Positions 233-56,070 of a DNA stretch of 64,000 nucleotides are shown piece by piece (the stretch's first letter is position 1; every line of letters begins with the position of its first letter). A program made the position numbers and the translations under genes. The notes below the pieces were generated by a model that ran no database searches, was not told where the DNA came from, and saw only the letters and a program-made list of their open reading frames with translations. The stretch is from Eledone cirrhosa (lineage: Eukaryota), in NCBI GenBank assembly GCA_964016885.1, contig OZ024743.1:287184001-287248000 (forward strand), read 5' to 3'.

Positions 233-723
233 ATACTTTGGGAGGGTCATGTTGCCAATAAGAAACACACGCACCAGTTGCTTTCACTTCAATTTATTAT
301 ATATTTATAAATTTATAAATTTCTGGTTGGTTGGTTGGTTCCACAACCAGATAGTTGTTTATAGATAGTCATAGTCCTTTCGTCACACACTCTGTGACCT
401 CTTCAGTGACTGGGGATTCCTTTCTTTGTTTCTGTGCCTCTCCTTTCTCTGTCCTACGCCAGAAACAAAATGGCGTAGGACAGAGAAAGGAGAGGCACAG
501 AAACAAAGAAAGGAATCCCCAGTCACTGAAGAGGTCACAGAGTGTGTGACGAAAGGACTATGACTATATATAAACAACTATCTGGTTGTGGAACCAACCA
601 ACCAACCAGAAATTTATAAATTTATAAATTTGTAAATTTATAAATATATAATAAATTGAAGTGAAAGCAACTGGTGCGTGTGTTTCTTATTGGCAACATG
701 ACCCTCCCAAAGTATAACAATAT
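225..723. repeat. ~240-bp-arm fold-back palindrome (PLE pLTR-derived) next to (TA)n, with a hammerhead in each arm
   Basis: 225-461 is the reverse complement of 471-723 apart from small indels; 9-nt loop GAAACAAAA. Confidence 0.9.
521..565 (+). ncRNA. Minimal type I hammerhead ribozyme (mirror copy 367-411, minus strand)
   Basis: AGTCA-CTGAAGA-G-GTCACA(gagtg)TGTGAC-GAAAG-GA-CTA-TGACT: stem I AGTCA/TGACT, stem II, GAAA core, 2-bp stem III, CUA site. Confidence 0.7.
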
Positions 724-3450: not shown

Positions 3451-3493
3451 ACGGTGCTGATGATAGCTAAGAAGCTTGAAACTAGTACATCGT
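3451..3493 (+). ncRNA. Minimal type I hammerhead ribozyme
   Basis: ACGGTG-CTGATGA-TAGC(taagaa)GCTT-GAAAC-TA-GTA-CATCGT; stem I ACGGTG/CATCGT, self-complementary CTAG in stem III, GUA site. Confidence 0.8.
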
Positions 3494-3747: not shown

Positions 3748-3821
3748 GTTATTCCGGGTTGAATCGGAGGTAACCACAGTAAGTAAGGTACTCAATACAT
3801 AGCAGAGTATAACAGTTTTAA

Positions 3822-3870
3822 GATTCCTGATGATTTCTAATGAATGAAACAGTTCTAGTCCTGTAGAATC
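3822..3870 (+). ncRNA. Type I hammerhead ribozyme in a solo pLTR (3746-3886) between (TA)n tracts
   Basis: GATTC-CTGATGA-TTTC(taat)GAAT-GAAACAG(ttctagtc)CTGTA-GAATC; 4-bp stem III, GUA site; same family at 37879-38072. Confidence 0.85.
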
Positions 3871-3883
3871 TCATCTATATTAA

Positions 3884-3946
<63 letters not shown>

Positions 3947-3986
3947 TGCTACTGTACGTCTGTATACATATATGTATGTATGTTAC

Positions 3987-4028
<42 letters not shown>

Positions 4029-4032
<4 letters not shown>

Positions 4033-4233
4033 GTAGAACACTGGAAGGTAATATCCGTAGTGGTAGAGCACTCAGTCCATGGGACGAGTTAGGTAGAAGT
4101 GGTTGCACAGCAGTTAGTTCACCATACCGAGAACAATTGTTTCACCTTAGCAGATCCTCAGCTCGAGCTGAGGATCCGCTAAGGTGAAACAATTGTTCTC
4201 GGTATGGTGAACTAACTGTTGTGTAACTACTTT
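4029..4233. repeat. Fold-back PLE pLTR with hammerheads on both strands, apex CTCGAG 4162-4167
   Basis: Left part is the reverse complement of pLTR 41677-41813; CTGAGGA-TCC(gctaa)GGT-GAAAC-AATT-GTT-CTCG. Confidence 0.85.
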
Positions 4234-4432
4234 TATATATATATATATACAAAATGTTAAAACGATCAAATTTTAGTTTAGAACATTTATTTGCTCACAA
4301 TTGTATCTCGGCTGTGTAAAACACTTGAAATTTTGCATTGAGCCTTTTGTCATACCGGTAACCGGGTAGTACTTAGTACTACCCTACATATTTGTAGTTG
4401 TATCAAACATATATAAATATAAATATTCTTAT

Positions 4433-37878: not shown

Positions 37879-37880
<2 letters not shown>

Positions 37881-38072
37881 GTTATTCCGGGTTGAATCGG
37901 AGGTAACCACAGTAAGTAAGGTACTCAATACATAGCAGAGTATAACAGTTTTAATATAGATGAGATTCTACAGGACTAGAACTGTTTCATTCATTAGAAA
38001 TCATCAGGAATCTGATGATTTCTAATGAATGAAACAGTTCTAGTCCTGTAGAATCTCATCTATATTAAAACT
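37879..38072. repeat. pLTR with fold-back; complete hammerhead on minus strand (37964-38012) and partial copy on plus
   Basis: GTTTTAATATAG...TCATCAG-gaat-CTGATGA...CTATATTAAAAC; same family as 3746-3886. Confidence 0.88.
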
Positions 38073-38089
38073 ATATATATATATATATA

Positions 38090-39093: not shown

Positions 39094-39861
39094 GTTTTCT
39101 TCTCTTTGCAAAATTTGAATTTTAGCCATGTTATATTGAGATGTAAGTAAATGTAAAATGTAAAATATAAATAAGGATTGCTCTGGTATAATATACTAAA
39201 ATATTTGTGTAACTTCCACAAACTTCTGTCGTGACATCCCCGAGTCCAGTGACCAAAAAATTGTTGTATTTTGATGTTTCAGAATACAAAAATTAATTAA
39301 AAACTAATTAATATAATATGTATCATAATCTATAAAGCTCAGTGTGTGGTGATGCTCCTTTCTTATAGAAATCTACTATATAGAATTTCTTCAATTGAAA
39401 TTTACAATTCAGTATTCGAAATAGTTTCGATTGCGTCTTGGCACATCTCATTTTTTCAATTTCACCCACAATTACGCAAAAAATAGATAAAACTCAATAT
39501 TTTACGATTTTTCTCTGTCATTTAAACTGCTAAACTCTTTCCACTACCATTCAAAATCTATACAACTTCATACTTTCTGCTACTTTCTCTTTCCAAGCTT
39601 GATGGTAATACTGTCCGTTTTACTCTCTGATATCATCTGCATACCTCTATCTACAACCCACACATTTTGCTACTTTCTCTTTTATACTTCAAATTATTAC
39701 ATTTCATACGAAACGATAATTATTCGAAAGCAACAGATACATTTATTCAACAACAAGCGATAAATCTTTTTTAAAACCTCTTTTCCAAACGCATACAAAC
39801 ACACACTCACTTCAACAACAACAACAACAATCTGCCTTTTATAGATAATGATAAACAATTA

Positions 39862-40599
39862 TATCCTCTATGAGGTCACTAAACCTGCTAGAAACAGCAG
39901 CTAACTCTCCCCCATACCACACCACTCCCTACTGTCTTAAATTTAGAAAACACATATCCTCTATGAGGTTACTAAACCTGCTAGAAACAGCAGCTAACTC
40001 TCCCCCATATCACACCCATCCCTACTGTCTTAAATTTAGAAAACATATCTTCTATGAGGTCACTAAACCTGCTAGAAACAGCAGCTAACTCTCCTCCATA
40101 TCACACCACTCCCTACTGTCTTAAATTTAGAAAACACATATCCTCTATGAGGTTACTAAACCTGCTAGAAACAACAGCTAACTCTCCCCCATATCACACC
40201 CATCCCTACTGTCTTAAATTTAGAAAACATATCTTCTATGAGGTCACTAAACCTGCTAGAAACAGCAGCTAACTCTCCTCCATATCACACCACTCCCTAC
40301 TGTCTTAAATTTAGAAAACACATATCCTCTATGAGGTTACTAAACCTGCTAGAAACAACAGCTAACTCTCCCCCATATCACACCCATCCCTACTGTCTTA
40401 AATTTAGAAAACATATCTTCTATGAGATCACTAAACCTGCTAGAAACAGCAGCTAACTCTCCTCCATATCACACCACTCCCCACTGTCTTAAATTTAGAA
40501 AGCACATATCCTCTATGAGGTCACTAAACCTGCTAGAAACAACAGCTAACTCTCCCTCATATCACAACCCTCCCTACTGTCTTAAATTTAGAAAACACA
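39862..40599. repeat. Minisatellite of eight ~92-bp monomers arranged as a 184-bp dimer
   Basis: Identical ORF starts every 184 bp; alternating CACCACTCCC/CACCCATCCC and GTCACT/GTTACT variants. Confidence 0.95.
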
Positions 40600-40857
40600 C
40601 AGACAACCATGCAGAACAACTCCATCGCAGCTCTGTTGTTCGGCTGGCATCGTCTACGCGCGTGTTGCGCAAGTACTGTGAAACAATAAATTTCAACACT
40701 TTTTTGCACAGAGATAATATCCATAGACGAAACTACAATTGTCACTGCTGGCGCAGCTCATGCTTCCAGGTCTGCAATTCATTCACCCAGTGCCTGGCAG
40801 ACAAAAAAGTGCTGCCATAAAATGGGTGGTGCAACCTAACTTTGGTAACTTATATAT

Positions 40858-41809
40858 ATATAATCTGGTTCTCTCCTCCCTTCTCACTCAACGTTAAAAC
40901 CAATGTAGGAAAACAATTTCTAGCCCTCTTAGATAGACACTTCCCCATAGGTCATAAATACCGCTCCATCTTTAACCGACACAAAGTTAAACTAGGATAC
41001 TCCTGCGCTAAGAACATGAAGACCCACATCACCACCATCCCTAGGAGCAACACCCCACCAAGGGTGCTCTTGTCGTAAGCCTGAAGCTTGCCCCCTTCAA
41101 CAGCAATGCAACACACCAGCTGTAATCTATGAAGCTGTGGTCACTTCCAACCGACCAAACGAACCACAGGAGGTCAAATCCTATGTGGGCATGGCGGAGG
41201 GCCGATTCAAGGAACGTTTCCTGAACCACCAGTCTACCTTCAGATACCCGGACAGCGTTCATCCACGAAACTCGCGAGCCACGTATGGTCCCTCAAGGAC
41301 TCAAGTATAGACTACTCCATTCAATGGAAAGTCATCACTAAGTCCAAGCCATACGCAAGGGGAAGTCCGACGTGTGGCTTATGTATTAACGAACGAATAA
41401 CTATTCTAAAGAGATTACGCAATAGTGATTGCCTAAACACGAGAAGTGAATTTTTCACACGTTGTCCACACGTCGCCAAACACCTATTACATAACTACAA
41501 GGCTCCGAACTGATTCTTTGTAATTTTATTTTCAACCTAAAAAGTTTTCGGACTTTCGCAGTTATCTCCCTTACACCTCTCGCACGCAGTCTAATATTGC
41601 CTGTGTGAAGTGACCGGGTTTCTGCGCATGCGCGTTCGTACAGTTGCCCTTCCTGTTCCTATAACCATGCCGATTCCGAGCTGAAGATCCGCTAAGGTGA
41701 AACAATTGTTCTCGGTATGGTGAACTAACTGTTGTGTAACCACTTCTACCTAACTCGTCTCTTGGACTGAGTGCTCTACCACTACGGATATTACCTTCCA
41801 GTGTTCCAC

Positions 41810-41813
<4 letters not shown>
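40858..41813 (+). mobile_element. 5'-truncated PLE: GIY-YIG end plus pLTR with hammerhead 41676-41715
   Basis: [22 protein letters not shown]; VIYEAVV..YVGMAEG.FKER; C..C..E..LNTRSE..CPH; CCGAG-CTGAAGA-TCC(gctaa)GGT-GAAAC-AATT-GTT-CTCGG. Confidence 0.88.
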
Positions 41814-41851
<38 letters not shown>

Positions 41852-42045
41852 AAAATGATTAAAAAATGGATTTGAAGAGCGCACCTGGTATATATATATA
41901 TATAAAGGATCTTTATAATATGAACACAAATTGATGTTAGCAAAGCCTATTTTCTCCGTTTTGGATTATCAAAATATTTGTCATTAGGTTAAATTGTTTT
42001 TTGTTAAAACACAAGCATGCTGGTTCTCGACCACATTGTGTGTGT

Positions 42046-55588: not shown

Positions 55589-56070
55589 TATAAAAAAAGA
55601 GAAAATGTTCGCCCTACATGGCTGAATACAATAAATGTAATCTGAGTTTTTCGAATATTAATAATAACATTCGATTCGTTTGCAATTACGCAAACAAGCC
55701 TCATTTTTATAGCCATGTCAGTAGAATGAACCCTTCATTCTTGCTCTTGTGTGGGCATGTAAACAGAACTGCAGACACTAATGTTTCTGGGTATCACCCT
55801 TCATCAGTACAGCTGACCGTTCACCTGTCAACTGTCAGAGCTAGTGAAAATATATGCTATTTTCTAAAACATACAGTGACTGATCGGCCTGATTTGCATA
55901 TTGGCAGACTGGCTGATCAGTCATATCTGCTAATATGCATATTAGCAGATCTGACTCCATTCAATGGAGTAATCCGGAAAGTTCCGACCAAATCTAGGCA
56001 TACAGAAATGGGAATTTGTCTTGTGTGCTGTGTGTGCATCGATGAACCAATAAATATCTTGCGTAGATGA
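55215..56070 (+). mobile_element. Decayed RTE LINE fragments
   Basis: WQSGVIILIFKVGD, WEYCQEVY.CFVDLVK.YD, FNGVIRK remnants, similar to 4720-5253. Confidence 0.5.

Follow-up and report, generated by a model that had tools for sequence, protein, structure and literature searches.

How Penelope-like elements (PLEs) are copied and what purpose their hammerhead ribozymes serve are both considered open questions (Craig et al. 2021, PMC8557442; Frangieh et al. 2024, PMC11167929). Self-priming was proposed in 2013 for the palindromic junctions of PLEs, and the rotifer pLTR was described in the same work as having a TATA box and an initiator (Inr) (Arkhipova et al. 2013, PMC3846280). The Hydra clade of PLEs has been defined by a CxCX5C motif, the absence of CCHH, CxxC and CxH motifs around E and N, and a DKT motif (Craig et al. 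2021, PMC8557442), and the G10.1-C11.1 pair is called highly conserved in the dimer-type minimal hammerheads of PLEs (PMC4209133). With a purified Anolis PLE, both strands were cleaved and extended in vitro, reverse transcription began at two internal start sites whose spacing equals the genomic tail, and hammerhead cleavage was unnecessary (Frangieh et al. 2024, PMC11167929). Transcription from the LTR promoter of a plant retrozyme passes through the hammerhead, and the ribozyme removes the 5' part of the transcript by cleavage (PMC12029980).

The locus compared with these systems lies in a 64,000-nucleotide stretch of Eledone cirrhosa DNA (the window) and is a fold-back, a 207-base palindrome at 4029-4235. 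Its inner part is an inverted repeat with zero spacer, in which two arms of 71 nt each (4094-4164 and 4165-4235) are 93% complementary, and the left arm extends to 4029 for a total of 136 nt. The preliminary description had given the same start but placed the end at 4233, two bases short of where the right arm stops. It had also put the symmetry axis CTC/GAG at 4164/4165, directly before CTGAGGA, and this is borne out by the inverted-repeat coordinates and the sequence: the centre reads CAGCTC/GAGCTG, and GAG (4165-4167) on the plus strand is followed at once by CTGAGGA (4168-4174), with the minus strand identical in this. The axis thus sits 3 nt before the CTGAGGA of a minimal type I hammerhead motif identified by hand. 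The fold-back has (TA)n on both flanks (Table 1). Adding 37513 to a window position in the short arm gives the equivalent position in a related copy at 41676-41813; read in the sense direction, both arms open at the equivalent of G41678, and their ends correspond to 41813 in the long arm and 41748 in the short arm. This copy had been taken for the unfolded parent, but it is a relative only, with 7 differences to the long arm over 136 positions, including core position N7 of the hammerhead (A vs G). Its coordinates serve below as those of the parent sequence.

The two arms differ from each other at 5 of 71 positions, all C/T transitions, and there have been no indels since they were formed. A 30-mer taken from the element is found 3 times in the window but in none of 100 shuffles, and the short-end junction 24-mer GTTGTGTAACCACTTCTATATATA has 1,890 exact matches in the genome as opposed to 0 for its reversed control, which excludes a chance origin of the fold-back. 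It is a head-to-head stub insertion of a PLE into (TA)n, a kind of insertion that is already known. The junction is blunt, with no native palindrome across 41677/41678. The sequence of this symmetric, spacer-less copy does not discriminate between twin priming and snap-back, and a genome search with the fold-back's own tail returned no candidates and is uninformative. The tail (window 4021-4072, parent 41770-41813) contains two direct copies of AGTG(C/T)TC(T/C)ACCAC that are 30 nt apart, and the word ACCACT, which is found ahead of both the short and the long end and ahead of an internal point, may be a start-site signal.

Table 1. Features of the fold-back and of the related PLE copy, in window coordinates.
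Feature	Position	Strand	Remarks
(TA)n target microsatellite, left flank	3990..4028	no strand	
Long arm: antisense copy of parent 41678-41813, ends at long RT start site beside (TA)n	4029..4164	-	7/136 differences to the 41678-41813 copy
65-nt "tail" of long arm = parent 41749-41813 = first 65 nt of next unit	4029..4093	-	
Short arm: sense copy of parent 41678-41748, ends at short RT start site (unit end, ..CTTCTA) beside (TA)n	4165..4235	+	
(TA)n, right flank	4236..4250	no strand	
Hammerhead-like motif, short arm: helix I (TC)GAG/CUCGG, CUGAGGA, helix II UCC-GCUAA-GGU, GAAA, helix III C-AAUU-G, U16.1 U17	4163..4202	+	predicted cut after 4197
Hammerhead-like motif, long arm; helix II has U for C10.3 and hence a U.G pair	4127..4166	-	
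Hammerhead-like motif, related copy: CCGAG CUGAAGA UCCGCUAAGGU GAAA CAAUUG UU/CUCGG	41676..41715	+	predicted cut 41710/41711
Hot zone: 5' ends of arms and simple copies	41660..41680	+	21 nt abutting the 5' edge of the ribozyme core
Related PLE copy, 5'-truncated, frameshifted: RT end, GIY-YIG-type EN remnants, 3' UTR, hammerhead, tail	40863..41813	+	
Tail; 5' start of unit in full-length copies; unit junction 41748/41749	41749..41813	+	

The related copy had been described as a pLTR on a PLE open reading frame, and this is right in substance, as seen from the ORF remnants, from relatives with RVT_1 and from the unit structure. Pfam matched no family to the window's own ORF pieces. A 324-aa, YHDD-containing ORF of a 1.5-kb copy (L061) has 14 relatives of 614-803 aa (E 7.6e-74 to 4.9e-48); among the four of these that were scanned, P0005 has RVT_1 above the cut-off (E 2e-7), and P0002 (E 0.0057) and P0012 (E 0.00025) have GIY-YIG matches that are both below the curated cut-off. 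Inspection of the translations by eye found the endonuclease motif VIYEAV..YVG..R..NH, CSCHKPEAC (CxCX5C), CGLC..E..N..CPH (CxxC and CxH around E and N) and SDKT (DKT), and no Cys between VIY and YVG in the GIY-YIG core, i.e. CCHH is absent. Judged by these matches and motifs, the family is a PLE with an RT and a putative C-terminal EN that has Hydra-clade features. The unit, about 2.57 kb long, starts at parent 41749 and finishes at 41748. Full-length copies (L179, L181) have the order (TA)n-41749...41748-(TA)n, so the tail 41749-41813 is the start of the next unit, and L178 has a partial copy upstream that runs from 41517 and represents the pLTR. Insertions have two alternative 3' ends, either 41748 (short) or 41813 (long), the latter 65 nt further on and inside the next unit.

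Several further features of this family were observed. A tandem array of about five 184-nt units (window 39861-40820) lies directly upstream of the truncated PLE copy, and other 1.5-kb copies of the family are without it at that place. A 74-nt gap in copy L017 was considered as a lost intron and rejected because its ends are not GT..AG. Eleven long-ended copies have a common 5' end inside the RT coding region, at parent-equivalent 40314 (L061 at L061:6829, L002, L003, L014, L015, L021, L023, L030, L066 and L067, with L012 matching from query position 3). In L061 this end adjoins (TA)n, and short-ended long copies continue past 40314. The copies with this end possibly form a truncated sub-lineage whose borders stay fixed as it spreads.

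The hammerhead was identified by hand and with a purpose-made descriptor that did not demand helix II pairing. The descriptor recognised it in the 41676 copy and, within the fold-back, on either strand, and in the rest of the window it found seven more instances, which represent five other hammerhead-like sequence types. In the 41676-41715 copy, CCGAG (41676-80) pairs with CUCGG (41711-15) as helix I, and the remainder consists of the core CUGAAGA, helix II UCC-GCUAA-GGU, GAAA, helix III C-AAUU-G, and U16.1 and U17. In the fold-back, helix I has 3 native pairs, to which the other arm contributes a C-G and a U.G pair. The core (C3 U4 G5 A6 N7 G8 A9, G12 A13 A14, A15.1-U16.1, H17) is complete in both arms and in the 41676-41715 copy, and helix I and the short helix III with its palindromic loop (C-G, A-U, loop AAUU) are both present. 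However, the G10.1-C11.1 closing pair of helix II is lacking and there is a U.U instead, followed by two C-G pairs. As a predicted fold, the motif fits the dimer-type minimal type I hammerhead of PLE repeats except for this U.U at 10.1/11.1. Rfam gave no hammerhead family at gathering score, nor at E<=10 in 3950-4350 and 41400-41900; its microRNA-like hairpin matches to the palindrome were rejected as an artefact of any long hairpin. The MFE fold of 41671-41720 (50 nt) was not better than shuffles (z = 0.65), so that thermodynamics alone does not support the fold. Three sequence-unrelated motifs in the window have U.U at 10.1/11.1 (3451-3493, 3821-3871 and 41676-41715) and a motif at 55768-55813 (minus strand) has A.A there, and helix II pairing was found in all four. 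A pair other than G-C at 10.1/11.1 may be a clade-typical variant.

A copy sample starting at 41676 could fake a pile-up and was replaced by two others, one anchored on the tail (39 non-self copies) and one anchored on the short end (the first 100 of the 1,890 short-end junctions, all on contig C1; L085 was dropped as a duplicate of L084, leaving n=99); the BLAST end points are accurate to about 3 nt. In the short-end-anchored sample, which is not biased towards any apex position, the 5' ends of 31 of the 99 short arms fall within 41660-41680, compared with 6.2 expected from the hazard just downstream (P ~1e-14), and the ending hazard per nt is 0.018 in this zone compared to 0.004 downstream and 0.002 upstream. 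Twenty of these 31 short arms belong to fold-backs and 11 are simple non-inverted copies flanked by (TA)n or unique DNA. The long-arm 5' ends in the tail-anchored sample lie at 41684-41747 (11), 41660-41683 (11), 41186-41655 (11) and 40863 or further (6). Long arms start 65 nt further away, yet they end in the same zone (11/39), which argues that the effect is set by position and not by distance. No short arm (n=99) and a single long arm (L099, n=43) ended at the predicted cut site (41709-41713), which is a weak trace of self-cleavage. About half of the arms read through the zone.

Partners of the short-end junctions follow a rule. Fifty-four of the 99 have an adjacent inverted partner, and these partners end at 41808-41813 in 43 cases, at 41748 in 1 and elsewhere or in a complex manner in 10. 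Fold-backs consist of a short-ended and a long-ended arm, and only one of the two carries the 65-nt tail. The 43 short-long pairs comprise 16 with symmetry to within 5 nt, 15 in which the long arm extends further 5' and 12 in which the short arm does. The two arms are independent of each other. A separate master for the short copies was rejected as the sole cause, as the A/G haplotype (16/25 in short copies vs 16/45) is also present in long copies. Depth summed over three runs (contigs of one sample, DNA-like) rises about 8-fold from bin 41660-41677 to bin 41678-41695, which is a weak hint, since contig depth cannot rank the parts of a stretch. The locus pairs L084/L085 and L200/L201 (C1, about 35.17-35.19 Mb and 36.09-36.10 Mb) share their mapped structure and are inverted relative to each other at a distance of about 0.9 Mb, which suggests either a large inverted duplication or a duplicate in the assembly.

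A second hammerhead family, unrelated in sequence, has two fold-backs in the window (3748-3886 and 37880-38080, the latter on the minus strand) and 3,755 exact matches to its short-end junction in the genome. The first 30 of these exact-match junctions on contig C1 were sampled, and L201 was dropped as a duplicate of L200 (n=29). Relative to C3, with the helix I 5' strand at -6 to -1, short arms start at -8 to -4 in 9 cases, inside the motif in 2, at -9 to -149 in 3 and at -150 or beyond in 15. In the two window fold-backs the inner ends lie at helix I or C3, and one arm carries a tail of 66-69 nt; in the sample, 12 of 12 partners have a 66-nt tail. The preliminary description had tied the position of the apex to the hammerhead, and this holds in the short arms (31/99 vs 6.2 expected) and long arms (11/39) of the first family (family A) as well as in the second (9/29); a uniform spread of apices along the pLTR, which had been named as the outcome that would speak against the tie, was not seen in the samples, though about two thirds of the apices lie elsewhere. 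The apex is genuinely tied to the ribozyme, and in more than one family. The window also has a counter-example to an apex at helix I: another hammerhead family forms a near-perfect palindrome at 230-715 with arms of about 240 nt and motifs at 367-411 (minus strand) and 521-565 (plus strand), whose helix II is canonical, with a bulged G and G10.1-C11.1. Its apex at about 466 is roughly 55 nt 5' of helix I, and its outer ends look alike.

The model to which we incline, at somewhat better than even chances, is that the window fold-back was made from two separate target-primed cDNAs, each of which extended as far as the 5' edge of the hammerhead, since the template RNA probably starts at this point. 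Both cut target strands would prime reverse transcription, one at each start site (41748 and 41813). The pLTR promoter would start the RNA just 5' of helix I, and both cDNAs would run off its end. Their 3' ends would then be joined by a template jump or by repair, which in the window case would leave a blunt palindrome with zero spacer. The ribozyme would thus mark the boundary through its position in the transcript and not through blocking RT. The short and long ends, the independent arms, the common zone and the in vitro behaviour of the Anolis PLE make two cDNAs the most economical model. A promoter at the ribozyme edge is favoured by the TATA/Inr geometry of the second family, by the TATA box and Inr of the rotifer pLTR and by the LTR promoter of the plant retrozyme. 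In longer copies of the second family, TATAAATA precedes helix I by 22-25 nt (30-33 nt when counted from its first T), and we take the CCAGATT at the boundary to fit the Inr consensus. Family A is without a TATA box at the right distance, and an Inr-like CCATT(A/C)C is present. The perfect palindrome GCGCATGCGC (window 41624-41633) lies about 45 nt ahead of 41673, the most frequent 5' end, and is presumably a promoter motif of the NRF1 type. The pLTR copies L215, L220 and L224 begin at 41626-41630, at GCGCATGCGC.

Some of the data count against this model, and so does family A's lack of a suitably placed TATA box. The zone is 21 nt wide and not a single site, and about half of the arms continue through it. 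In addition, full-length-type copies seldom start in the zone: of some 17 whose sequence extends to the upstream hammerhead, only 3 do so and at least 6 continue past 41565, so the zone is not the sole RNA start. The peaks at 41660 (TATAAC) and 41673 (ATTAC) beside (TA)n could be due to TA microhomology. A broader proposal, offered tentatively and with the odds somewhat against it, is that the hammerhead is transcribed first, from a promoter that fires at the 5' edge of helix I, and that thousands of stubs, fold-backs and simple copies alike, would be a fossil map of the transcription start and of two-strand target-primed copying. The minority of junctions that coincide exactly with the cleavage site and are joined by means of helix I identity would then record occasional reverse transcription of self-cleaved RNA and priming of the second strand by helix I.

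The preliminary description had proposed a different mechanism, in which RT stops at the folded hammerhead and the nascent cDNA snaps back to prime the second strand, so that the ribozyme sets the start of second-strand synthesis. The perfect zero-spacer palindrome of the window copy fits this, as do the many in-zone apices that look like hairpins with loops of 3-8 nt (e.g. CAGCTCG-TAAT-CGAGCTG) and the hot zone that abuts the ribozyme in two families, and self-priming has already been proposed for palindromic PLE junctions (PMC3846280). However, RT travels 3' to 5' and meets the 3' side of the fold first, whereas the ends lie beyond its 5' side, where the entire ribozyme has already been copied, and there is no excess of ends at 41716-41728, the place of first contact with the fold (hazard 0.005 per nt), nor at the predicted cut. 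A stall at the fold therefore explains the ends poorly. The simple copies without a fold-back that share the zone (11/31 in-zone ends) also speak against the proposal. A copy-back strand should reach 41813 and the flank, but it ends at 41748, the fixed 3' end of simple and full-length copies. Finally, in snap-back the second arm cannot exceed the first, but 12 of the 43 short-long pairs have short-arm sequence that is absent from the long arm, with the tail on the long arm alone, which contradicts the proposal for these fold-backs; the window copy itself is symmetric. Taken together, the stall with self-priming is unlikely.

Another explanation is that there is no defined RNA end or stall, and that cDNAs and (TA)n join wherever the sequence is TA-rich or self-complementary, which is common near the hammerhead. 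Simple copies often begin at TATAAC (41660) or ATTAC (41673), immediately after (TA)n, as this would predict. There is also a second apex cluster on the AACAATTGTT palindrome of helix III (L098, L156, L158, L159 and L162), but with 4/100 short arms at 41701-41710 and 6 of 44 long arms this cluster is far weaker than the hot zone. Some junctions exploit the identity between the antisense of the helix I 3' strand and the helix I 5' strand. L099 is such a joint and has 10 exact sites in the genome, and the contigs of the sample used for the depth comparison contain further joints of this type. In the second family, 2 of 11 long arms, independent of each other, end exactly at position 1.1 and are joined via 6 nt of helix I identity (L183 and L200; 57 exact sites). 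Against microhomology as the general cause, the window junction is blunt at a place without a native palindrome, and the second family keeps its boundary at AGATTC without a TA motif, including in simple copies joined to (GT)n or unique DNA (L192, L195). On this evidence, microhomology is an improbable source of the pile-up.

Trimming of the RNA is a further alternative to a transcript that starts at the ribozyme. In this case, 5' to 3' decay of longer transcripts would be halted by a compact or protein-bound hammerhead RNP, with no promoter at that place. Such decay would account for a ribozyme-tied boundary in two families and for the scatter of a few nt upstream of helix I, and the Anolis hammerhead requires the element's protein, which would put an RNP at this place (PMC11167929). 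The TATA box at -30 in the second family, however, makes a transcription start the simpler explanation there, and trimming is in our view quite improbable.

The exact apex of the window copy, GATCCTCAGCTCGAGCTGAGGATC, is found at 15 sites genome-wide (<=1 mismatch), and the flanks differ among the five loci inspected. At one of them, L176, this apex is found in a divergent subfamily whose own variants are present in both arms, and together with the differing flanks this indicates that the apex was formed repeatedly. That the fold-back is a small mobile unit of 200 bp, with a ribozyme on each strand, which spread by descent with inherited apices has in its favour the exact apex common to the 15 sites and the flanking (TA)n, which would let a read-through RNA re-insert with the same borders, but it is hardly credible given that the flanks differ, that both arms of L176 carry another subfamily's variants, that the apex microstructure varies among most in-zone fold-backs and that 15 sites are few out of roughly 1,000 fold-backs.

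The element itself is ordinary, as the inverted pLTR with a tail, the targeting of (TA)n and the presence of hammerheads in the repeats are already known. A pile-up of inner ends at the 5' edge of the ribozyme and their absence at the cut site were not found in the literature searched. The numbers presented in this study bear on both PLE questions, the mode of copying and the purpose of the hammerhead: each fold-back has a short and a long end, the arms are independent, ends pile up before the ribozyme with none at the cut site in short arms, and the second family behaves alike. The combination of one short and one long end, arm independence, the pile-up at the edge and the second family argues for two-strand priming on uncleaved RNA, with the RNA starting at the ribozyme.

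The described EN+ PLE insertions (PMC3846280, PMC8557442) share with these families the head-to-head inverted copy at the 5' side, the junction palindrome and the one-sided extension, as well as strong 5' truncation, a microsatellite target and a terminal-repeat hammerhead. They differ in that their tails are reported as 30-40 nt, compared to 65-66 nt here, and in that the window copy amounts to a mere stub (136 + 71 nt) that lacks an ORF. The passages of these two papers that were consulted do not link the junction position to the hammerhead, unlike what is reported here. The Hydra clade (Craig et al. 2021, PMC8557442) likewise has a unit of <3 kb with a single ORF, the CxCX5C linker, no CCHH, CxxC/CxH around E and N, DKT, (TA)n targets and a hammerhead, whereas the family A hammerhead has U.U and not G-C at 10.1/11.1. 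The dimer-type minimal PLE hammerheads (PMC4209133) have the same complete core, 5-bp helix I, 2-bp helix III with a palindromic loop and location in a terminal repeat, but family A has U.U for G10.1-C11.1, only 2 G-C pairs in helix II and no Rfam match. The plant retrozyme NbRZ1 (PMC12029980) resembles the proposed arrangement in having a repeat promoter that transcribes through the hammerhead and a ribozyme near the 5' end of the RNA. It is an unrelated, non-autonomous element of the plant LTR type, and its transcription start was mapped experimentally. The Anolis Poseidon element PAc (Frangieh et al. 2024, PMC11167929) has two RT start sites spaced as the tail and AT-rich targets, as family A does, and the cleavage and extension of both strands and insertion without hammerhead cleavage would likewise be shared. 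PAc belongs to another clade and another host, and the ends of the cDNAs and the joining of inverted copies lie outside the scope of that in vitro work. In human L1, two cDNAs from both target strands are reportedly joined to give an inversion, a process called twin priming that is said to have been described by Ostertag and Kazazian in 2001. There the second primer anneals internally and an upstream segment is inverted, whereas here dedicated 3' start sites would give a true fold-back.
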